Shown: positions 15,322-27,511 of the stretch, one piece after another
How positions within the stretch are numbered: the stretch's first letter is position 1
Layout: each line of letters starts with the position of its first letter
Origin: Idiomarina loihiensis L2TR
Lineage (GTDB): Bacteria; Pseudomonadota; Gammaproteobacteria; Enterobacterales; Alteromonadaceae
DNA: 32,000 bases
Direction of reading: 5' to 3'
NCBI RefSeq assembly: GCF_000008465.1
Contig: NC_006512.1
Coordinates: 1,620,001-1,652,000, forward strand
The notes under the pieces: generated by a model
The model's database searches: none
Told to the model about the DNA's origin: nothing
What the model saw: the letters and a program-made list of their open reading frames with translations, nothing else
Made by a program: the position numbers and the translations under genes

Positions 15322-15801
15322 ATGGAAAAGTACGAAGAACTGCTACTGGCCTTAAGAAAAGTGATTCGCGCCATCGACTTATACTCTAAGCAGCTAAATA
15401 AGTATTCCGGATTAACCGCGCCTCAGTTATTAATTTTGCGTGAAATAAATGCGGCGAACGGCATAACCGCCAGTAAAGTGGCACAAAATATCAATCTAAG
15501 CCCGGCAACCGTATCTAATGTCATCGAACGCCTTGAACATCGGCAGTTAATCCACAGACACCGTAGTGAACAAGACAAACGTAGGGTTTCTCTGTACCTC
15601 ACTGAGCAGGGCCTGACTCTACTGGAAAAAGCGCCACAGCCGTTGCAGGAAGATTTCATCGAAAAGTTTCAGGCACTGGATGAATGGGAGCAGTCGTTGC
15701 TGCTCTCGTCAATGCAAAGAATTGCCAATATGATGGATGCGGAACGTCTCGACGCCGCGCCCGTACTTGAAGTTGGAAGCTACCATAAACTGGACCACTA
15801 A
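15322..15801 (+). CDS. MarR-family transcriptional regulator
   Basis: 159 aa with a winged-helix region LTAPQLLILREI...ITASKVAQNINLSPATVSNVIERLEHRQLIHRHRSEQDKRRV. Confidence 0.85.
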   Translation: MEKYEELLLALRKVIRAIDLYSKQLNKYSGLTAPQLLILREINAANGITASKVAQNINLSPATVSNVIERLEHRQLIHRHRSEQDKRRVSLYLTEQGLTLLEKAPQPLQEDFIEKFQALDEWEQSLLLSSMQRIANMMDAERLDAAPVLEVGSYHKLDH

Positions 15802-15802
15802 C

Positions 15803-17572
15803 ATGCACAAACGACTACTTAGCTTATTACCCGCTCTGCTTTTATCGGGAGCTGCAATTGCAGAAACCTGTGGAAGTGACAAAGGGATTATTCCTATTTC
15901 ACAGGTGCAGGGAGACAGTGAACAGTCTCCAAAGGTTGGTAAGCAAGTAACCGTGCGCGGTATTGTTACCGCAGGCTGGCAGCCATCTGAACAGCTTGGC
16001 GGCTTTTTTCTTCACAGTTTGCCCGAAGACATGGATGGGAACCCTGCCACTTCAGAGGGGTTATTTATAGCAACCAATAAGCAGCATTCACAAATTAATA
16101 ACGGTGAATGGGTAAGAGTTACAGGACAAGTTGAAGAGCGTTCGGAATTAACCTCGTTAATAGAGGTATCCAATATAACAACCTGTGGTGAAGCAAAAAC
16201 ACTTCCTGTGACAACTGAGCTGGAGCTTCCGGTTGAATCACTTGACGCGCTTGAAGCCTTAGAAGGTATGCCTGTCATTTTATCCGCTACTAAAGGCGAG
16301 AGCCTGACGGTTTCCGGCAATTACAATTACCCTCGCTACGGTTTTTTCGATATTTCCGCAGGGCGCTTATGGACGCCAACTCAAGTCGTTATGCCGGGAA
16401 AAGACGCGAAACTTCAGGCACAGGAAAACGAATTGAACCGGTTGCAGGTTGATGACAACAGCAATGTTATCGAGCCACGTCCACTGCCATTTTCAGAGCT
16501 TCAACATGGTGAACAAGGTAGTCTACGTTCGGGTGCAACCCTGAAAAGCTTCTCCGGTATTATCAGCCAGTTCAATAACCGTTACCGAATTCAGCCAACC
16601 GACGACTTAGAACTAGAAACACCGTCGGTGCAACCGCAACTGGCAGAGAAGTCAGATAAGGCCTTGCGCATCGCCAGTTTTAATGTGCTGAACTTCTTTA
16701 ATGGAAACGGCGTCGGACAAGGTTTCCCGACTCCCAGAGGAGCTGACACGCCTGAGCAAATGCAACGACAACAGAAAAAAATTGTTGCCGCACTAACAGC
16801 TATTGATGCTGATGTTATTGGTTTAATGGAAATTGAGAATGACGGATTTGGTGAGCGCAGCGCAATAATGCAACTGGTCAAGGCACTGGAGAAAGCATCA
16901 GGGAAAGATTATGCAATAGCTGAGCCGCGTGCAGAAAAAATCGGAACAGACCAAATTACTGTCGGTATTATTTATCAGCCGCAGCGCGTAAAACCAAATT
17001 CTCACGCGATATTTACACGTCAGGGGCCTTTCTCCTGGGGAAGCCGGCCTCCTCTTGCACAAAGCTTTATCGACGCAAACACAGGTAAAGAATTCAGTGT
17101 TGTGGTAAACCACTTCAAGTCGAAAGGCAGTTGTCCGGAAGACTCCGAAAGCCCAAATAGTAATCAAAATGATGGGCAGGCGTGCTGGAACGACTTAAGA
17201 CTTCAGTCCTCGCGAGAGTTAATTCAATGGATTCAGAGCGAGTCTTTAGCAAACTCGGTATTACTAGGTGATTTTAACGCTTACTACCAAGAAGACCCGG
17301 TGCGTTATTTTGCTGACAATGGTTTTTATAACCCTTCAGGCGCAAAAGACTATTCTTACGTTTATGACAGTCAGGCCGGGGCTTTGGATCACGTTTTTGT
17401 TACAGACTCACTTAAAGACGCGATTCAGGAGGTGTATCACCTACCCTTTAATGCTGACGAACCCCAGCTATATGATTACCGCGATGAGGCGTACTTTGCA
17501 GAAGGCCCATTTCGCTCTTCTGACCATGATCCATTAGTACTGGACTTAGTTTTTTCTGGCTCTGGCATGTAG
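15803..17572 (+). CDS. exported ExeM/NucH-type extracellular nuclease (endonuclease/exonuclease/phosphatase superfamily)
   Basis: The start is taken at ATG 15803 (MHKRLLSLLPALLLSGAAIA signal peptide), 1 nt after the MarR stop. The C-terminal EEP domain carries RIASFNVLNFF, IGLMEIENDG, NHFKSKG, GDFN and SSDHDP. Confidence 0.85.
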   Translation: MHKRLLSLLPALLLSGAAIAETCGSDKGIIPISQVQGDSEQSPKVGKQVTVRGIVTAGWQPSEQLGGFFLHSLPEDMDGNPATSEGLFIATNKQHSQINNGEWVRVTGQVEERSELTSLIEVSNITTCGEAKTLPVTTELELPVESLDALEALEGMPVILSATKGESLTVSGNYNYPRYGFFDISAGRLWTPTQVVMPGKDAKLQAQENELNRLQVDDNSNVIEPRPLPFSELQHGEQGSLRSGATLKSFSGIISQFNNRYRIQPTDDLELETPSVQPQLAEKSDKALRIASFNVLNFFNGNGVGQGFPTPRGADTPEQMQRQQKKIVAALTAIDADVIGLMEIENDGFGERSAIMQLVKALEKASGKDYAIAEPRAEKIGTDQITVGIIYQPQRVKPNSHAIFTRQGPFSWGSRPPLAQSFIDANTGKEFSVVVNHFKSKGSCPEDSESPNSNQNDGQACWNDLRLQSSRELIQWIQSESLANSVLLGDFNAYYQEDPVRYFADNGFYNPSGAKDYSYVYDSQAGALDHVFVTDSLKDAIQEVYHLPFNADEPQLYDYRDEAYFAEGPFRSSDHDPLVLDLVFSGSGM

Positions 17573-18525
17573 GCATTATCGGTTCCGAAGTGAACCTCGA
17601 ACTCAACACCAAGCAACCACTGACCGTTACGCTGTTCTGTCATAAGATTGCGAGGCCAGTGGTACCCAACCCAGGTTTCCACAAAAAACCAGTCCCGTAA
17701 GTATCGTTGACGATTAAGAAAGCGCAATCCATAGTCCTGAACAGGCACTTCATGGTCAGTATTGCCCTCTATCCAGGTTTCTGTCGCCCAGGCTTTTTCC
17801 TGCCCATACAAATGATATAAACGCGCAGTACTGTTCCAGCGAATACCGTCTGTTTCTTCTGCAAAGGTGCCTTTAGAAGCCCACCTTAATAGCCATGTAT
17901 CAGTTAATGTGGCTTCATAATCCACTCTCTGTGCAACACCAAAGCCGTCACTGTCGCGCCAGAAAGCTGAAGACTGCATACGAACTTGCTGATTGCCTGA
18001 AAAAACAAAACCTGTCATGTAGCGGGCTCTGGCATAGGTATCAAACCGTAAACCACCACGGATACCTATACTGTAGGACACTCGATACGCTTCGTTAATT
18101 TCGGGATCAAAACCTAAACCCACTAGCCACTCTTCGTCTGACTGAGGAGAACGAATAACTGAAGGGCGACCGGTAGAATCATCATCCAGAAACTCATTTT
18201 CATCAACCCGGCCAATGAAAGCTGAAACGTTTTCTTTTAGCTTAGGTAAGGTTACCCGGGCTCTAAAACGCGACTTAACTTCAAAGCCATCGTACTGATC
18301 CCATTGCGGCGCAACCGAAAGCCGCCCATATGAACGTTCATATTGATTAATGCTTTCATTTCCGAACAAGCCGTCAAACCAACGCGCGGTTACATCTACC
18401 GAGGTTCCAAGCCCGCTGCGGAAACTGTCCAGCCACATACCATCTTCTTCATCAGCTTGTTGAGCTTCTGTAGCTGACTGGCAACCAAGACTAAAAATAA
18501 AAGCTAACCAAGTAATCTTTTTCAT
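17476..18525 (-). CDS. putative outer-membrane beta-barrel protein or lipoprotein, family not recognised
   Basis: The start is taken at ATG 18525 ([17 protein letters not shown] signal). The body has alternating aromatic/polar strand-like segments. A VEFEVHF beta-signal-like motif sits 36 codons before the stop. Confidence 0.55.
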
Positions 18526-18570
18526 ATTGAACGGTCTATAACTAAACACCACCTTTGGTTGGAGAACACT

Positions 18571-19697: not shown

Positions 19698-21713
19698 TTA
19701 GGCTGTCCAGCCCAGCTCAGTAGCACGCTGCTGAGCCTGCGCGGGCACATCAGTAGCTACAAAATGATGGTGCAGCACCTGAACACCAAGCATATGGTTG
19801 ATGACGGCATCAAGCTGCACACGCTCTTCATTCGGAACATTCTCATCCTGATGCCGTTCAAAGGTCCGCACCACTTCGTCGTAGTCAAGTAAACCGGCTG
19901 ACTTAACTGCCTCAGCATTCAGGAATTGCTCCGCCAGCTTCTCAACAGCTTTCCACTTCTCCGGGTCGGTGTGCGCCGGCGGTGCCATAAAAGCGAACTT
20001 CTCACGTTTATACAGCGTTTCCGGCAACAAGCCTTTCATGGCTTCACGCAACACATATTTTTCTTTATTGCCTTTAATGCGTAGGTGCGGCGGCACAGTG
20101 AAAGCGTATTCCGCCAAGTGATGATCTAAAAATGCCGGGCGCGCCTCCATTGAATTAGCCATATCCACCCGGTCGCCGCCCCAGGTCAGAATTTGCCCCT
20201 CAAGCATGGTTTTAATCCAGACATACTGAGCTCTGTCCAGCGGATGCCGACCATCCAGCATGTCTTTATCAAGCGTGTTGGCAATAGCCAGGCTGGGGTC
20301 ATAGCCTTCAACCTGTTTTCGCTTGTTCTCCGACATAAGCGGCAGCGCAACCGATGAGCAGGAAAGCCACGGCTGCACACAACTTGGAGTAAAACCCATT
20401 TTCTGGTTAAAAGCTTCGCTGACAAACTCTTCGCGAGCCAACATCGCGCCTTTAAAGAGTTTATTGTTTTTCTCCAACAGCTCCTGCCACTCAACCCGCT
20501 CTACTTCCGGTAAATGGTCGAGTCCATGCAGGAACATGTCCTTTCTAAAAGCCGGGTAACCGGCAAAGAGTTCATCAGAACCCTCTCCGGTCATCACGAC
20601 TTTATAGCCGGCTTCATGCACCTCTTTACTCATCAGGTACTTGGCTACGCCCAGCGTGTTATATATGGTTCGTTCTGTATGCCACAAAGTTTTTACGAAA
20701 TGGTCGTAAAGGTCATCGGCTTTAAGCCGCATAATGTGGTGATCAGCCTTAGTAGCTGCAGCCATTTCTTCTGCAATAGGTGTTTCATCATAGTCAGCAG
20801 AATCGAAACCTATGGTAAAAGCTTTTACCGAGGTTTGGGTTGAGGCGGACGCAAGTCCCAGAATGGCACATGAATCAATGCCACCGGACAAATAGCAACC
20901 TACAGGTACGTCAGCTGTCATTCGGTGCTGAACGGCTTCCAGTAGCTTAGCGCGGACCCCTTCAATATAAGATTCCTCGTCAACATCCGCTCCCGGATAG
21001 CTCTCTTCCGGCGGAAAATCGACATCCCAGTATTTATGTTCCGTTGCAACCACTTTGCCATTTTTACGCTGCAACTTAACCACATAACCCGGCTGAACCT
21101 GATTAATCCCTTCAAAAGCCGTAGAGCCCGGCACCATCACTTGAATCAGTTGGTGGTATAAGCCCTCTGCCGAAAACTCCCGCTTAACGTCCGGGTGAGC
21201 AAACAACACTTTCAGCTCAGAGCCAAACACCACGCCATGCTCCGTTTCCGTCCAGTATAAAGGCTTAATTCCAAATCTGTCGCGCACCAGGTACAGGCTT
21301 TCATCTTTTGCATCGAATAAGCCGAAAGCGAACTCTCCACGAAGCTCCTTTAGGGTGTCCTCCAGTCCGTAACGCTCAAACAGGTGAAGAACAATTTCAG
21401 AGTCGCTTTTACTGTTAAAGCGTGCGCCACGAGCGGTTAAATCCGCACGTATGCGTTTGAAATCGTAAAACTCGCCGTTATGAGTCAGCATCAGTCGTTT
21501 ATCGGCTGATATAAAAGGTTGCCGACCTCGCTTTTCATCTAGGTCGATAATGGATAAACGGGCGTGACTAAATCCTACGCCGTAGTCTTGTTGTACTTCA
21601 TAACCAAACCCGTCGGGACCACGATGATGCATTATCGCAGCCATATTAACTAAGGTTTGGGGTTCAATCGCTCTTTCCGTTTGATGATGAAAAACGCCAG
21701 CAATTCCGCACAT
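19698..21713 (-). CDS. AsnB-family glutamine-hydrolysing amidotransferase, long 671-aa paralog
   Basis: N-terminal nucleophile MCGIAGVF, then HRGPD, NGEFY and SDSE in the Ntn glutaminase domain. The PP-loop is YLSGGIDSCAILGLA. It carries about 100 extra C-terminal residues relative to E. coli AsnB. GAGGAAAA lies upstream. Confidence 0.9.
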   Translation of the reverse strand: MCGIAGVFHHQTERAIEPQTLVNMAAIMHHRGPDGFGYEVQQDYGVGFSHARLSIIDLDEKRGRQPFISADKRLMLTHNGEFYDFKRIRADLTARGARFNSKSDSEIVLHLFERYGLEDTLKELRGEFAFGLFDAKDESLYLVRDRFGIKPLYWTETEHGVVFGSELKVLFAHPDVKREFSAEGLYHQLIQVMVPGSTAFEGINQVQPGYVVKLQRKNGKVVATEHKYWDVDFPPEESYPGADVDEESYIEGVRAKLLEAVQHRMTADVPVGCYLSGGIDSCAILGLASASTQTSVKAFTIGFDSADYDETPIAEEMAAATKADHHIMRLKADDLYDHFVKTLWHTERTIYNTLGVAKYLMSKEVHEAGYKVVMTGEGSDELFAGYPAFRKDMFLHGLDHLPEVERVEWQELLEKNNKLFKGAMLAREEFVSEAFNQKMGFTPSCVQPWLSCSSVALPLMSENKRKQVEGYDPSLAIANTLDKDMLDGRHPLDRAQYVWIKTMLEGQILTWGGDRVDMANSMEARPAFLDHHLAEYAFTVPPHLRIKGNKEKYVLREAMKGLLPETLYKREKFAFMAPPAHTDPEKWKAVEKLAEQFLNAEAVKSAGLLDYDEVVRTFERHQDENVPNEERVQLDAVINHMLGVQVLHHHFVATDVPAQAQQRATELGWTA

Positions 21714-21731: not shown

Positions 21732-22799
21732 TCAGACGACATCAATGACGCGTTCAGCTCGCTGTACCATACAGGTCAGCAGCGCCATACGTAAAAACAC
21801 CGCACCCCTTGCCTGGCTGAAATACCAGTTATGAGGCGTATGGTCGAGATCGGCGGATAATTCTTCACCGCGCGCTAAAGGGTGTAAAATAATCGCGCTG
21901 TCTTTTAGCGGAGACTGCGCCGTTAAGTGAAACTCACTGCCATAAGTACTAAAGGTATCACCTTCCCACGAAATCGCGTTGATATAAACCACGTCGAGCT
22001 CTGGTAGTACCTGCTCTAAATCCCGGGTCGTACGAATCTTTATTCCGGCTTGCTCAATCTGTTCTCGTTGCTCACTTCCAAACAGCTGAGTCGACGATTC
22101 CTCGTCATGAATAATGACAATTTCATCAATTGCTTTTGGAAACTTCACTAAACATTTAATAAAGCTGCGCACGGTACGCATTTTATTTGGCACACCAATA
22201 ATGCCAATTTTTATCGGCGCTTTATCGGCTTCGTCCGTCACTAAATCGGGACGCCATTTAAACAGTGCGTACATATCCGTAAGCGCCTGAGTCGGGTGTT
22301 CATCTGAACCATTACCCGCATTAATAATAGGAATGCGCAGCGAATCGATCATCTCTTCCAGTGAGGTTTCATTATTGTCCCTCAACACCACGCAGTCACC
22401 ATAGTTATTAAACATTTCAGCCACATCGGCTAAACGTTCACCTTTGGCTATGCCGGTAGTAGAACGGTCAGTAATTGACATAATATCGCCGCCCAGACGG
22501 TGCCAGGCGCTTTCAAATGACAGACGAGTACGAGTACTTGGCTCGTAAAACGCGCTGATTAAAATTTTGCCCTGTAATGAGGTACTAAAACGACGAGGGT
22601 TAGCCTCGTACTTTGCAGCAAGCCGGAACAGTTGCAGCATCCCCAGCTGCGAAAACTGATCAGCAGACACAACATGCTGATTCGACAAGTTCAGCAAGTA
22701 ATCACCATCTTCCTGAATTGCTTTTAATAACGCCTTTGGATGAGCATCGCCGCAAACATCGGGGCGCTCTCGTTCAAAGGAGACATCCTTTATAGTCAT
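21732..22799 (-). CDS. aspartate/ornithine carbamoyltransferase-family enzyme with a non-canonical second-substrate pocket
   Basis: 355 aa. The carbamoyl-phosphate motifs EPSTRTRLSFE, KGE, VVLRD, NAGNGSDEHPTQ, RTV and HPLAR are present. The ATCase segment TRVQKER is replaced by NAISWEG. It has an N-terminal extension of about 45 aa, and no pyrI is adjacent. Confidence 0.85.
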   Translation of the reverse strand: MTIKDVSFERERPDVCGDAHPKALLKAIQEDGDYLLNLSNQHVVSADQFSQLGMLQLFRLAAKYEANPRRFSTSLQGKILISAFYEPSTRTRLSFESAWHRLGGDIMSITDRSTTGIAKGERLADVAEMFNNYGDCVVLRDNNETSLEEMIDSLRIPIINAGNGSDEHPTQALTDMYALFKWRPDLVTDEADKAPIKIGIIGVPNKMRTVRSFIKCLVKFPKAIDEIVIIHDEESSTQLFGSEQREQIEQAGIKIRTTRDLEQVLPELDVVYINAISWEGDTFSTYGSEFHLTAQSPLKDSAIILHPLARGEELSADLDHTPHNWYFSQARGAVFLRMALLTCMVQRAERVIDVV

Positions 22800-22912
22800 A
22801 CAATTACCATATGGTTTTAGAAATAAAATCTTTAATAAAAAGCCCGAGTAACAAAACCGGAGCTAAGCAAGTCATTATTAGCGCCAGAGAAATTAACCAC
22901 TCAAAAGCCAGT

Positions 22913-24349
22913 TCACTGATTAGCATTTGACTGCTCCTTCTCATTTAGTGTGTCCCAGTCAAACTTGTCGCTACTGCGAAAAATGCCTACTAGACATATT
23001 AGACCGGAAACTGCACATGACACTAAAGCGGCGACATAGAAGCCGACAACAAAATAACTCAGCATACCAAATGCCGTACCGAACCCCATAGCGCACGCCG
23101 CGTATGTTCCCGTCAGCCGACGATGATACAGCCCCAGTACAATTGGCCAGATGGTGCTGGCAACAAAAGCTCCGGCAAAATTCAATAGAGCACCTAAGGT
23201 TGCAACGCGCGGCAGGCACAATAACCAGGTAACGACTCCTAAGCCTAGAATACAACTGCGATTAAAGCGCATTAATGTTTTGTCGCTGGCTTTAGGTTTC
23301 AGTTTTTTATGGAAAATATCCTGCGTGACTAAATCTGAAGTAGCTGCGAGTAACGAGTCCAGGCTGGACGCCAACGCAGAAAAAATAACAATAAAAACAA
23401 TAATGGCCCCGGCTTTACCGAGTACAGCCGCGGCAACGGTAGGACCAATCATATCGGGGCTTGGTGGGAAAATTCCCAGCTGAGGCGCTGCTAACGCAAT
23501 AAACCCGGTAACAATAGGAATGGGCAGCCATAATAAGCCACCAGTTAAGTAAGCCTTGTAAGCCACATTCTTTTTAAAAGACAGCGCCCGTGACCACCAG
23601 ACATTGGAATGAAAGATTTCCCCAAGGCCGAAGAAGATATTGTTAAACAGAAACATGACGGCAGCCGGAAACAGCATGTCCAAAAGCTGCGGATGCTCAC
23701 TTGTCAGGTTGCTGTGGATGCTCTCCAGGCCAACATTATCAATTATCCAGTACGCGATAAAACTGACACCGACAATGATGATTAAAGCCTGAATAAAGTC
23801 GGTAGCAATAACCGCCCGCATTCCGCCAAAAAGTGTATAGCCGACACAAATTACCAGTATGGTGGTCATGCCAATGTGATAATCGAGCCCACTGAGTGAC
23901 TCAAGCAAAATACCACCAGCCATACCCAGACTAATTAACCAGCCAAAAGCATAAACCACAGAAATGATGATAAAGACGAGCCAGGCCAGATTGCCATAAC
24001 GCAAACGCACAAAGTCGCCCGATGTATAACCGTTAGGAAGCAGTTCCTTAATGCGTTTAGCCATAGGTGCAAACAGCACTAAGCCCAGAGCAGCAAAGGA
24101 ATACCCTACCATGCCCCAAATGCCGAATTGATAGGTTAACTGGGGAGCAACCAGCGTGGTGTTACTGGTAACCCAGGTGGCCATAGCCGTTGCCGCTGCA
24201 AACGCAAAACCAACATTCCGCCCTGCCAGAGCAAAGTCCTCGTGGCTGCGGTTCTTCCGCCCCAGCCAATAACCAAAGGCTACCCAGAACACCCCAAACA
24301 GGACGATAATCGTGATGCCGGTACTCGTATCCAGTGCGAATTCAGTCAT
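22913..24349 (-). CDS. sodium:solute symporter (SSS) family transporter
   Basis: 478 aa with about 13 hydrophobic segments. The N-terminal region ...DFALAGRNVGFAFAAATAMATWVTSNT is typical of the SSS family. Substrate is unknown. Confidence 0.88.
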   Translation of the reverse strand: MTEFALDTSTGITIIVLFGVFWVAFGYWLGRKNRSHEDFALAGRNVGFAFAAATAMATWVTSNTTLVAPQLTYQFGIWGMVGYSFAALGLVLFAPMAKRIKELLPNGYTSGDFVRLRYGNLAWLVFIIISVVYAFGWLISLGMAGGILLESLSGLDYHIGMTTILVICVGYTLFGGMRAVIATDFIQALIIIVGVSFIAYWIIDNVGLESIHSNLTSEHPQLLDMLFPAAVMFLFNNIFFGLGEIFHSNVWWSRALSFKKNVAYKAYLTGGLLWLPIPIVTGFIALAAPQLGIFPPSPDMIGPTVAAAVLGKAGAIIVFIVIFSALASSLDSLLAATSDLVTQDIFHKKLKPKASDKTLMRFNRSCILGLGVVTWLLCLPRVATLGALLNFAGAFVASTIWPIVLGLYHRRLTGTYAACAMGFGTAFGMLSYFVVGFYVAALVSCAVSGLICLVGIFRSSDKFDWDTLNEKEQSNANQ

Positions 24350-24830
24350 GGCGCTCTTGTCTGGAGTGGATCCATTGCCGATGAAGCAATAATAAGGTTG
24401 CTACCAAAGTAATGAAAATAACCAGGCCGACGAAGAATAAAGTCAGAGATTGCCAGAGCGGATAGTGCTCCACCGTTATCTCAATAGTATTGCTGGTATA
24501 AATTTGGTTATCAGGACCTTCGGCTCTAGCACGCAAATAATAAGTTCCATTGCTAAAACCGGTAAGTGAAATATCCTGGAAGTCACCTAGTGTAGGAAAC
24601 TGACGAGTACTCTTGGCAAACTCTGAATTGCTGGCAACTTCAATAGTAACTCTGTTAAGCTCGTCAAAATTCAGAGCGCTAACAGAAACAGTGAAGTAAC
24701 CTTCTTTTACAACGGAGTCCGGCCCGCTCAGTTTTAACGAGCTCGCATGCGCAGTTGTTGGCAACATTACCAACAAACATAAAGCAAACAAAATATAGCA
24801 ATAGTTAAAGCCGTTTTTCTGCGTTGTCAT
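24342..24830 (-). CDS. single-pass membrane protein with an exported beta-sandwich (Ig/FN3-like) domain, coupled to the symporter
   Basis: 162 aa. A signal peptide (...LPTTAHASS) precedes about 100 aa of strand-like sequence (YFTVSVSA, VTIEVAS, GTYYLRARA, IEITVE), a C-terminal TM helix and a basic tail. An 8-nt ATGACTGA overlap joins it to the symporter start. Confidence 0.7.
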   Translation of the reverse strand: MTTQKNGFNYCYILFALCLLVMLPTTAHASSLKLSGPDSVVKEGYFTVSVSALNFDELNRVTIEVASNSEFAKSTRQFPTLGDFQDISLTGFSNGTYYLRARAEGPDNQIYTSNTIEITVEHYPLWQSLTLFFVGLVIFITLVATLLLLHRQWIHSRQERHD

Positions 24831-24896: not shown

Positions 24897-24975
24897 GTTT
24901 AAAATAGTCATCTGTTTACTGTTATTGCTCGTAATCAGTTCAACATATTATTTACGTTTAGTGGTCAGTCATTCA

Positions 24976-25347
24976 ATGCAAAAGTATTTATGCAGTCTCG
25001 GTTCAAACCTTGAGCCTGAAACACATTTTCCTCAGGCACAAGTGGCCCTTAAAGCTTTATCCGACGATATACGCTTTTCACGAAACATACCGACTTCACC
25101 AGTCGACATGGATACGAATAACGATTTTTTGAACGCCTTATTTATTATTCGCACGCCTATGTCTGCGAATGAATTAAAGCAAAAGTTTAATGCTATCGAA
25201 GAGGCTATGGGCCGCGACCGCTCAGACCCACAAAGAAGCTTTAAAGATCGCACCATAGATATTGATATCCTGGGACGGCTTGAAGAGAAACCTCCGGTAC
25301 CGGAATATTTAACCTCTTTATTACCAGATTTAGGACTCACCTCATGA
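24976..25347 (+). CDS. short HPPK (FolK)-like protein
   Basis: 123 aa counted from ATG 24976. It aligns by eye to E. coli HPPK: GSNL, ALKAL, FLNA, GRDR and DRTIDIDIL (equivalent to PRTLDLDIM). It ends about 25-30 residues short, and VPHY is replaced by VPEY. Confidence 0.65.
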   Translation: MQKYLCSLGSNLEPETHFPQAQVALKALSDDIRFSRNIPTSPVDMDTNNDFLNALFIIRTPMSANELKQKFNAIEEAMGRDRSDPQRSFKDRTIDIDILGRLEEKPPVPEYLTSLLPDLGLTS

Positions 25348-26051
25348 GAAAAACAGCAGTTATTACAGGCGCCGGACGACGTTTTGGTTTTGAACTGGCC
25401 AAAGCCTTGCTGACTGAAGGCTACCAGTTATTTGCTCACTACAATAGCTCGCGTGACGGTATTGACGAGCTGGAAGCACTTGGCGCTCAGGGCGTACAAG
25501 CAGATTTCACCAACATAGACAGTATTCAGGCCATGGTGCGTACTATTAGCAGCGCTACGGACTCTGTCGATCTATTGGTTAACAACGCTTCCTGTTTTTT
25601 CGACAACGAAACCGTTGATAACGACAACAACGCGTTAGCTGCGGTATTCCAGGTACACGGAATGGCACCCTATCTGCTTATAAGCGGCTTGCAACGGCAA
25701 TTAAGCCATTCCGGGAATGGACTGGTTATTAATATTACGGACATCTACGCTGACCGCCCGTCTACAGACTATATTGCTTATTGCGCAGCGAAAGCCGGGC
25801 TCGCCAACATGACCCAGGCCTTTGCTAAAAGTTTAGCGCCATCAGTAAGAGTCAACGCCATTCAGCCAGGCCCTATTCTATTTTTACCAGAGCACGATAA
25901 AGAACATCGTATGCAGGTTCTGGATGAGACACCATTGCGGGTTGAAGGGGGTTTAGAGCCAATGATAGAAACCGTTCGCTTTTTACGCGACAACCCGTTT
26001 ATTACGGGCGAGTCCATTAAAGTCGACGGCGGTCGCGGCTTAATGATATAA
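25344..26051 (+). CDS. folM: FolM/PTR1-type short-chain pteridine (dihydromonapterin/dihydrofolate) reductase
   Basis: 235 aa SDR. The cofactor motif is ITGAGRRFG, which is TGxxxRxG rather than TGxxxGxG. It also has NNAS and the catalytic YCAAK. An ATGA overlap joins it to the HPPK-like gene. Confidence 0.8.
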   Translation: MRKTAVITGAGRRFGFELAKALLTEGYQLFAHYNSSRDGIDELEALGAQGVQADFTNIDSIQAMVRTISSATDSVDLLVNNASCFFDNETVDNDNNALAAVFQVHGMAPYLLISGLQRQLSHSGNGLVINITDIYADRPSTDYIAYCAAKAGLANMTQAFAKSLAPSVRVNAIQPGPILFLPEHDKEHRMQVLDETPLRVEGGLEPMIETVRFLRDNPFITGESIKVDGGRGLMI

Positions 26052-26071: not shown

Positions 26072-26089
26072 TAATGCCGATCAGTTAAG
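26072..26089. repeat. IS left terminal inverted repeat
   Basis: TAATGCCGATCAGTTAAG compared with the reverse complement of the right end, TAATGCTTGTCAGTTAAG. Confidence 0.85.
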
Positions 26090-26130
26090 AAAAATTTTAG
26101 CGATCGGTTGACCGATCCGGCAGAGACTTC

Positions 26131-26167
26131 AAAATCCGTAGTTAGGTTTTCTAACTACGGATTTTTT
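26131..26167 (+). terminator. perfect 15-bp stem-loop plus T-run immediately upstream of the transposase ATG
   Basis: AAAATCCGTAGTTAG, loop GTTTT, CTAACTACGGATTTT, then TT and the ATG at 26168. Confidence 0.55.
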
Positions 26168-27493
26168 ATGTTTCTGAGTCAAGCACTGGACCAACTGCAG
26201 GAGTTTACGCCGGATGATTTTAGTAAACTACCGGATCTGCTGGAGCCTGAGTTAATCGAACAATGCCTTGAAGACGCGGGCGTTACAACGGTACGCAAAC
26301 GCCGTTTGCCAATGGACTTTATGGTCTGGGCGGTCGTAGGAATGGCATTATTTCGGGAAATGCCGATGCGTCAGCTCGTTTCACACCTTGATTTAATGTT
26401 GCCCGGCAAAAGACCTTACGTTGCGCCGAGTGCCGTAGTTCAGGCTCGTCAGCGTTTGGGGGCTAATGTTATGAAGCGTATGTTTGAGCTCACTAATGAG
26501 CTGTGGTTCGATAAACTACCGCTTTCTCACTGGAATAATCTATCGGTTCTGGCTGTCGACGGCACCGTCTGGCGTACACCGGACACACCGGAGAATGATG
26601 CTTCCTATGGGCGAACGGCTAACCAGCGGGCTGAATCCGACTATCCTCAAATTCGGATGGTGAATCAAATGGAAGTAAGCAGCCATTTAGTCACCTCGAC
26701 GGAGTTCGGCAGTATTGCAGAGGTTAGTGAAGTAGACCTGGCAGCCCGGCTGATTGAACAGACGCCGGACCACTCACTGACGCTGTTCGATAAAGGGTTT
26801 TATGCGCTGGGTTTACTGGATCAATGGCATCGTGCCGGTGAGGAGCGCCATTGGCTTATTCCCCTCAGAAAAGGCGCACAATACTCTGTCAAGAAGTCTT
26901 TTAGCGACACGGACAAATTGGTAGAAATTAGGCTCTCACCACAAGCTAAGAAGAAGTGGGATAATGCACCGGACACTGTTCAGGCGCGTTTAGTGTGTAA
27001 GAAAATAGCTAAAAAAGAGGTTGCGATATTAACCTCAATGACAGACACGATGCGTTATCCTGAAGCCGATATCGTTGACTTATATGCTCATCGCTGGGAA
27101 ATCGAGCAGGCTTACCGTGAAATGAAACAATATATGCTGAAGAGTGAGCTGACCCTGCGCAGCAAACGGCCTGACCTGGTTGAGCAGGAGTTGTGGGGCA
27201 TGCTGGTCGCTTATAACTTATTGCGGTATATGATGGCGCAAATGGCCTATAGCCTGAAGCATATTGAGCCGAATCAAATAAGTTTCAAACAAGCCTCTCA
27301 TTATCTGGTGGGGCAGTTACATATACTGGTACACATCTCACCCGGAAAAATACCCAAAGTCATGGAGCAAATGATGGAAATGGCCAGCGCATTCGTGCTG
27401 CCCGAAAGACGAGAGCGATATTACCCTCGTTCAATAAAAAGGCGGCCGCAACGTTATCCGATGCGACCGCCTTCTAAACCGACAGCCAGTTAG
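26168..27493 (+). CDS. IS4-family DDE transposase (InsG-like)
   Basis: 441 aa counted from ATG 26168 (MFLSQALD...). The DDE context is [18 protein letters not shown] and [15 protein letters not shown], which gives the Y(2)R(3)E(6)K signature. It closely resembles my recollection of E. coli IS4 InsG. Confidence 0.93.
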
Positions 27494-27511
27494 CTTAACT
27501 GACAAGCATTA
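27494..27511. repeat. IS right terminal inverted repeat
   Basis: CTTAACTGACAAGCATTA begins 1 nt after the transposase stop. Confidence 0.85.

Follow-up and report, generated by a model that had tools for sequence, protein, structure and literature searches.

What acceptor does an aspartate transcarbamylase (ATCase) relative use when it has kept the carbamoyl phosphate (CP) site of its family and lost the residues that hold the aspartate side chain? This question is raised by a gene of Idiomarina loihiensis L2TR that lies in a stretch of 32,000 nucleotides (contig NC_006512.1, positions 1,620,001 to 1,652,000; hereafter the window) and encodes an ATCase-like carbamoyltransferase, called here the ATC-like protein. 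A preliminary description of this DNA had presented the protein as a transcarbamylase with an intact CP site and an altered acceptor pocket, and had proposed a different, possibly uncharged amine acceptor. The residue pattern holds throughout a large family. Within a conserved cassette of five closely spaced minus-strand genes, absent from that description, the gene occupies the fourth place, and its constant partner is a gene for an AsnB-like glutamine-dependent amidotransferase. Together the two enzymes may carry out the N-carbamoylation and then the amidation of a neutral alpha-amino acid.

Active-site residues of the ATC-like protein

Two Pfam domains are found in the protein (PF02729 OTCace_N, 6e-39, and PF00185 OTCace, 6e-13), which gives it the two-domain architecture of transcarbamylases. 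ATCase is its best database similarity, with 34% identity to Escherichia coli PyrB. The closest sequences in the PDB are E. coli ATCase catalytic chains (E ~1e-44, residues 39-347 against 5-306), headed by 1EZZ, the P268A mutant of the E. coli enzyme. A Foldseek search with the AlphaFold model of the protein returns ATCase chains for all of the top 50 matches, at TM-scores of 0.75-0.79 (about 0.77) normalised to the target.

Residues were mapped onto E. coli PyrB by three alignments, all in agreement: a pairwise alignment with HMMER, a MAFFT alignment of 20 family members with PyrB, and a MAFFT alignment of ~100 representatives at 50% identity. The reading frame, the Pfam domains and all three alignments bear out the CP site as first described. 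The motifs STRTR (88-92) and HPTQ (168-171, with the equivalents of H134/Q137) are kept, and S88-T-R-T91, H168-P-T-Q171 and R140 (R105 of PyrB) are invariant in the family. The alpha-carboxylate ligands are likewise retained, K84 as K119 within KGE and R167 as R208 within MRTVRS.

The residues facing the side chain of the acceptor are changed. In ATCase, R229 and Q231 bind the aspartate beta-carboxylate. The PyrB segment T228-R-V-Q-K-E-R234 reads N-A-I-S-W-E-G in the ATC-like protein (part of YINAISWEG, 272-280), with alanine for R229, serine for Q231 (serine or alanine across the family) and glycine for R234; in the family at large, RxQxER is replaced by N-A-I-S/A-W-x-G. The 240s segment of the family (274-298) offers no substitute for R229/Q231 in the form of a conserved Arg or Gln, and the rigorous alignments place no equivalents of these residues elsewhere in the sequence. 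All canonical ATCases in the alignment of ~100 representatives carry TRxQxER and PLPR. A 2015 review of transcarbamylases, in which the ATC-like group is not described, recognises ATCases by RxQxER and ascribes specificity to the 240s loop (PMC4581275).

Further changes accompany these. HPLPR reads HPLAR (306-310), P266-L-P-R of PyrB becoming P-L-A-R, so that the HxLP motif with its cis Leu-Pro fails at H306-P-L-A309; the alanine is invariant in the main family and in the more distant Group I (see below), and for this motif 'some variations exist' among transcarbamylases (PMC4581275). H106 is replaced by D141 and GDLKYGR by GVPNKMR. All of these substitutions had been listed beforehand and recur in each of the three alignments, and S80 to glycine is a further change to be added to the list. 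They are not due to chance, being fixed or almost fixed among family members at 67-90% identity. The N-terminal extension, called atypical at the outset, can be considered real coding sequence since F8, R10, D14, G17, A19, H20, P21 and K22 are invariant in the family; it measures ~34 residues relative to E. coli PyrB, or 40 relative to the start of the Pfam domain, instead of the roughly 45 first estimated.

The invariance of the CP and alpha-carboxylate ligands, combined with the replacement of R229, Q231 and R234, suggests that the enzyme is active and under purifying selection, and that its acceptor is a new one in which the alpha-carboxylate persists. Retention of the K84/R167/R105 triad would imply that this carboxylate is free, and loss of R229, Q231 and R234 that the side chain is neutral. 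A different, possibly uncharged acceptor is thus well supported, short of proof, by the residue pattern and by the gene context presented below.

Extent and phylogenetic position of the family

The ATC-like protein stays under the cut-off of every NCBIfam transcarbamylase model, those for ATCase included (195.8 against 236.95 for TIGR00670; 194.3 against 263 for NF002032; 165.6 against 512 for NF006046). With OTC models it reaches 95-107 bits against cut-offs of 281-306, and with the PTC, AOTC and YgeW models 62.6 against 500, 39.6 against 288 and 30 against 500, respectively. Neither the motifs specific to the OTC, PTC, AOTC and YgeW families (DxxxSMG, HCLP) nor scores at the level of their cut-offs are found. 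In a neighbour-joining tree of 64 sequences, distance-based and built without an OTC outgroup, the main family, Group I and Group II together split from the canonical ATCases in 99 of 100 bootstraps, and the protein was placed in no clade of known specificity among those compared (ATC, OTC, AOTC, PTC and YgeW models, canonical ATCases in the tree). No pyr gene (pyrI or other) occurs in the window or in the 95 loci compared. Judged from its sequences, the ATC-like group is a distinct, large, uncharacterised and mis-annotated transcarbamylase family.

Relatives of the ATC-like protein were found in 394 genomes in a scan of one genome per species, and more than 1500 clusters at 90% identity match it at E <= 1e-60. 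Homologues were listed as the best 120 matches per protein search; the family is uniformly ~70% identical and these lists are saturated. They include, at 67-90% identity, proteins of Idiomarinaceae, Kangiella, Pseudoalteromonas, Alteromonas, Bowmanella, Ketobacter, Pleionea, Sedimenticola, Thiothrix nivea, Nitrosomonas halophila and Nitrosomonas strain ANs5, and the named hosts among the matches listed are almost all marine, saline or soda-lake taxa. The copy in the metagenome-assembled genome (MAG) ET05-11 is 100% identical in protein and ~95% identical in DNA. Group I, at 35-45% identity, comprises sequences of Planctomycetota, Myxococcota and Actinomycetota and has N228, PLAR and G80 in common with the main family (PyrB numbering).

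Group II consists of sister proteins of ~355 amino acids (P0131-P0147 and P0155, from loci L086 and L093-L095) with the N-terminal extension in common. Their STRTR, HPTQ and HPLAR motifs are decayed (e.g. SETR, NPTH, PELP), and one of the genes adjoins a spermine-synthase-like gene. By these motifs they look like pseudo-transcarbamylases or enzymes of different chemistry. They were not retained as part of the same system, given the degenerate CP site and the lack of an AsnB-like neighbour in the loci seen.

Conserved gene pair and cassette

The AsnB-like protein has the Cys2 nucleophile (in MCGIAG) and the SGGIDS PP-loop. It scores 452 bits on TIGR01536 and 305 bits, for a cut-off of 570, on TIGR03104, the model for the amidotransferase of N-acetylglutaminylglutamine amide (NAGGN). 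In all 83 proteobacterial loci, which span Idiomarinaceae, Kangiella, Pseudoalteromonas, Bowmanella, Thiothrix and halophilic Nitrosomonas, genes occur in the same order for a small exported protein, a sodium:solute symporter (SSS) family transporter, (a 40-residue transmembrane peptide), the ATC-like protein and the AsnB-like protein. The SSS transporter is 60-97% identical across the proteobacterial cassettes and 51-52% identical to its planctomycete and myxobacterial copies. Among the hosts, Nitrosomonas halophila and Thiothrix nivea are chemolithoautotrophs.

The pair of ATC-like and AsnB-like genes can be followed, at 42-45% identity, into Planctomycetota, Myxococcota and Actinomycetota. 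At this distance the same cassette is found on the metagenomic contig L084, in Stieleria maiorica (L090) and in a Myxococcota MAG (L092), and the pair without the rest of the cassette, and without a transporter, on the metagenomic contig L088 and in the actinobacterial loci L087 and L091. Several of these contexts are informative about metabolism. The operon of L088 reads carA-carB-ATC-like-AsnB-like, with gaps of 6 and 17 nucleotides, and a GT20/sugar-phosphate phosphatase gene lies nearby. The cassette of S. maiorica, preceded by an open reading frame (ORF) of 74 codons (L090, 6441-6665), comes right after three osmolyte genes of the same strand, which encode a glycine/sarcosine N-methyltransferase (491 bits, cut-off 350), a sarcosine/dimethylglycine methyltransferase-like protein and a BCCT transporter. 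That of the Myxococcota MAG is preceded by OtsA-like, OtsB and trehalase genes.

Of the 27 proteobacterial loci that are not from Idiomarinaceae, 20 have next to the cassette, in variable orientation, a gene for an M20 amidase of the hydantoinase/carbamoylase family (516 bits on NF006771, cut-off 399; next named match the N-carbamyl-L-glutamate amidohydrolase ErtE); L084 and L090 carry this gene within the operon. It is adjacent in none of the ~55 Idiomarinaceae loci, nor in L088 or L092. In S. maiorica it is followed by an isochorismatase-family hydrolase (L090, 13353-14135) whose weak best matches are biuret amidohydrolase and RutB.

The actinobacterial operons form a separate case. In Actinophytocola (L087, 8001-17080) and Actinosynnema (L091, 9001-19059) the pair heads an operon that continues with genes for a JmjC/cupin hydroxylase, TenA, two APH-type kinases and dCMP-deaminase-like, nucleoside 2-deoxyribosyltransferase-like and thymidylate-synthase-like proteins, plus a ThiD-like kinase in L087. 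The layout resembles bacimethrin or 5-hydroxymethylpyrimidine-type clusters.

Proposed function and alternative explanations

The reading that we prefer, with a confidence that falls a little short of even, is that the ATC-like protein uses CP to N-carbamoylate a neutral alpha-amino acid and the AsnB-like protein then amidates it, yielding an osmolyte. The ATC-like protein would be a functional, ATCase-derived N-carbamoyltransferase that transfers the carbamoyl group of CP to the alpha-amine of an alpha-amino acid whose side chain is neutral, the leading candidate being glutamine. The AsnB-like protein would then act on the alpha-carboxylate left free in the carbamoylated product, adenylating it and amidating it with ammonia from glutamine. 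The product, with both charges masked, would be an uncharged solute; for glutamine it would be N-carbamoylglutamine amide (CGA), a compound produced by Ectothiorhodospira marismortui DSM 4180. The SSS transporter and its two small membrane partners may bring the solute or its precursor into the cell, or recapture it, a MarR-type regulator may control the system, and the M20 carbamoylase may degrade or recycle the solute, together in Stieleria with the isochorismatase-family hydrolase, a candidate amidase for its carboxamide.

The contexts described above suggest this direction of metabolism. The carAB operon of L088 has a CP supply of its own, which argues that the enzyme consumes CP, anabolically and at high flux. 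That chemolithoautotrophs have the cassette speaks for the synthesis of a compound and against the breakdown of an organic nutrient, as does the need of the partner enzyme for ATP and glutamine, and the M20 ureido-hydrolase as a neighbour points to a ureido metabolite. An osmolyte role is suggested by the solute genes near the cassette or the pair in S. maiorica, the Myxococcota MAG and L088 and by the marine, saline or soda-lake character of almost all named hosts among the matches listed, and the amidation step by the Cys2 nucleophile and PP-loop of the AsnB-like protein and its likeness, below the cut-off, to the NAGGN amidotransferase.

The carbamoyl group could instead be a transient protecting group, in a pathway where the SSS transporter imports an amino acid, the ATC-like protein blocks its amine, the AsnB-like protein amidates it and the M20 enzyme removes the carbamoyl, leaving a free amino acid amide or another modified amine. 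Such import and conversion would account for a transporter as conserved as the enzymes and for an M20 gene that neighbours the cassette in 20 loci and belongs to the operon in two more (L084 and L090), and it parallels the N-acetyl/N-succinyl logic of arginine and lysine biosynthesis, in which ArgE and DapE are M20 enzymes. It is nonetheless unlikely, for the M20 gene is missing beside the cassette in Idiomarinaceae, L088 and L092, its varying orientations, convergent and divergent among them, suit an accessory or recycling function more than a compulsory step, and L088 and the actinobacterial operons have no transporter.

Two other schemes are considerably less probable. In the first, a two-step guanidino synthesis, the ATC-like protein would make a ureido compound whose ureido oxygen is adenylated by the AsnB-like protein and exchanged for ammonia from glutamine. 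The strict pairing of the two genes and the intact glutaminase domain are compatible with it, and so is the textbook membership of the AsnB synthetase domain in the PP-loop ATP-pyrophosphatase superfamily, with argininosuccinate synthetase and GMP synthetase. No AsnB-family member is known to form a guanidino group, which counts against it; moreover, a charged product misfits the osmolyte genes, the carbamoylase and the isochorismatase-type amidase found as neighbours, and no sequence feature specifically indicates guanidino synthesis. In the second, given as little weight, the enzyme would be catabolic: the transporter would import a ureido compound to be phosphorolysed to CP and an amine, for energy or nitrogen. 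Its importer is indeed co-transcribed, and catabolic OTCase, PTCase and ureidoglycine carbamoyltransferase (UGTCase) are precedents (PMC4581275). Opposed to this are the lack of a carbamate kinase gene in any locus, the consumption of ATP and glutamine by the partner, the carAB operon with the CP consumption it implies and the occurrence of the cassette in obligate chemolithoautotrophs.

That the protein is an ordinary or redundant ATCase (a PyrB paralogue) or a dead enzyme is the least credible idea of all, since the similarity to ATCase, the label 'aspartate carbamoyltransferase' in many source databases and the lowered activity of E. coli ATCase with the P268A change are outweighed by the absence of RxQxER, the scores under every ATCase equivalog cut-off, the separate clade at 99% bootstrap and the lack of pyrI or another pyr neighbour and, as regards inactivity, by CP-site residues that are invariant at 67-90% pairwise identity as opposed to the decayed CP site of Group II.

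Several observations weigh against N-carbamoylation and amidation to an osmolyte and temper the confidence given to it. The AlphaFold model has a mean pLDDT of 70 (moderate), with values <50 around residues 77-119; the cis-proline of HxLP is replaced by alanine; and the presumed side-chain pocket residues, N274 excepted, differ between subfamilies. A locus for biosynthesis only would not usually be coupled everywhere to an importer and have a hydrolase in the same operon. Thiothrix nivea is no halophile, and the pair of Actinomycetota stands in a nucleoside-type cluster, not in an osmolyte locus. Ectothiorhodospira is not among the best 120 matches listed, an absence that is uninformative given the saturation of these lists. 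Lastly, the acceptor amino acid is not readable from sequence.

The locus of Idiomarina loihiensis

The coordinates of the cassette and of its surroundings in the window are collected in Table 1.

Table 1. Features of the window around the ATC-like gene (positions in the window; length in amino acids)
Feature	Position	Strand	Length	Remark
MarR-family regulator	15322-15801	+		three unrelated genes between it and the operon
ExeM/NucH-family extracellular nuclease	15737-17572	+
ORF	17476-18552	-	358	~100-nucleotide overlap with the nuclease gene
AsnB-like glutamine-dependent amidotransferase	19698-21713	-	671	18 nucleotides downstream of the ATC-like gene
ATCase-like carbamoyltransferase (ATC-like)	21732-22799	-	355	ATG start
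Single-transmembrane peptide	22804-22926	-	~40	between the SSS and ATC-like genes
Sodium:solute symporter (SSS) family transporter	22913-24349	-	478
Small exported accessory protein	24342-24830	-	162	first gene of the operon
HPPK-like and SDR genes	24925-26051	+	140 and 235	overlapping; divergent from the cassette
IS4-family element	26072-27511			between the SDR and aconitase genes
IS4 transposase ORF	26108-27493

The five-gene cassette is predicted to be translationally coupled. The gene of the exported protein overlaps the start of the SSS gene by 8 nucleotides; that of the transmembrane peptide shares 14 nucleotides with the 3' end of the SSS gene and ends 4 nucleotides before the ATC-like start. 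The exported protein consists of a signal peptide, a domain of ~95 residues and a C-terminal transmembrane anchor, and has no Pfam or NCBIfam match. The peptide, too short for default ORF lists and without a family match, is conserved in lineages as far apart as Gammaproteobacteria and Planctomycetota, and (K/R)x(I/L)W forms the C-terminus of each of the five copies aligned. A search of Rfam, over the whole window at the gathering threshold and over the operon at E <= 1, gave no riboswitch or other RNA naming a ligand, and a scan for promoters and terminators gave counts not above those of shuffled sequence.

The MarR regulator is of a type that is inherited together with the cassette, being 71% identical to the MarR encoded next to the cassette in Pseudoalteromonas and 41-43% identical to the copies of Planctomycetota and Myxococcota. 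In Idiomarina it is separated from the cassette by the ExeM/NucH nuclease gene, the 358-codon ORF, which has no Pfam or NCBIfam match, and MsrAB.

On the other side of the operon, the HPPK-like and SDR genes were considered as pathway members and rejected, their synteny being limited to Idiomarina/Pseudidiomarina and probably lineage synteny. The IS4-family element beyond them is flanked by a 12-bp direct repeat (GGCACGGTGGCC), has terminal inverted repeats TAATGCCGATCAGTTAAG / CTTAACTGACAAGCATTA and is absent from the three closest Idiomarina genomes (L004, L005, L007). Its insertion appears to split a terminator-like hairpin.

Implications

Thousands of database entries for the family are labelled 'aspartate carbamoyltransferase' without the residues that define that activity, and treating these proteins as a transcarbamylase of their own would mend the pyrimidine-pathway annotation of many marine genomes. 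Should the proposed function be true, genes would be assigned to an osmolyte pathway that has been an orphan although its chemistry dates from 1991, a nitrogen-rich ureido-amide might be accumulated and released by marine heterotrophs, nitrifiers and planctomycetes in addition to their other solutes, and a new acceptor specificity would become available for transcarbamylase engineering. The invariant coupling of both enzymes to a three-component SSS transporter may in addition indicate a transport-metabolism complex.

Comparison with known systems

With PyrB (EC 2.1.3.2) the ATC-like protein has in common the two-domain fold, the CP ligands (STRTR, R105, H134/Q137) and the alpha-carboxylate ligands (K84, R167). 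It differs from it by the absence of RxQxER, by HPLA in place of HPLP, by the S80 to G and H106 to D changes and by an N-terminal extension of 35-40 residues. The genomic setting also differs: in the loci examined, the ATC-like gene is never beside pyrI and always adjacent to the AsnB-like gene.

UGTCase is the other known enzyme of the ATCase branch with a neutral acceptor side chain (PMC4581275). As in the ATC-like protein, the R167 equivalent is kept and R229/Q231 are replaced, the side chain accepted by UGTCase being a neutral (ureido) one (PMC4581275). The solutions differ in detail, UGTCase having H(T/S)LP with S258/K261 where the ATC-like protein has HPLA with A/S-W, a comparison that for UGTCase follows its description only. 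Furthermore, UGTCase is catabolic, in purine degradation, whereas the ATC-like gene lies beside amidotransferase, symporter and osmolyte genes.

The osmoprotectant NAGGN offers a parallel for the combined action of the two enzymes. It depends on a 'trio' formed by Ngg, the AsnO amidotransferase and an M42 peptidase, in which the AsnB-family amidotransferase amidates the alpha-carboxylate of an N-acylated glutamine. In both systems, the alpha-amine of glutamine would be masked by N-acylation and the alpha-carboxylate by AsnB-family amidation to give an uncharged solute, and a hydrolase is encoded alongside the biosynthetic genes. The N-cap proposed here is, however, a carbamoyl group transferred from CP by a transcarbamylase, as opposed to an acetyl-peptide made through Ngg; the AsnB-like protein is far below the TIGR03104 cut-off; the hydrolase is an M20 carbamoylase, not an M42 peptidase; and the SSS transporter is an integral component. 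Neither an Ngg nor an M42 gene occurs in any cassette locus, and the resemblance would be an analogy of mechanism only.

The closest chemical counterpart is CGA, in which a neutral amino acid bears a carbamoylated alpha-amine and an amidated alpha-carboxylate (PMC1224877). There is no report of CGA from Idiomarina or the other cassette hosts, and full-text literature searches gave no paper on CGA biosynthetic genes or on the ATC-like/AsnB-like gene pair. Its structure is the one expected from a transcarbamylase followed by an AsnB-type amidotransferase. It is conceivable, albeit doubtful, that the compatible-solute class of one purple sulfur bacterium occurs widely among marine and saline Gammaproteobacteria, halophilic nitrifiers, Planctomycetota and Myxococcota, where it would be made by an ATCase-derived amino-acid N-carbamoyltransferase together with an AsnB-type amidotransferase.

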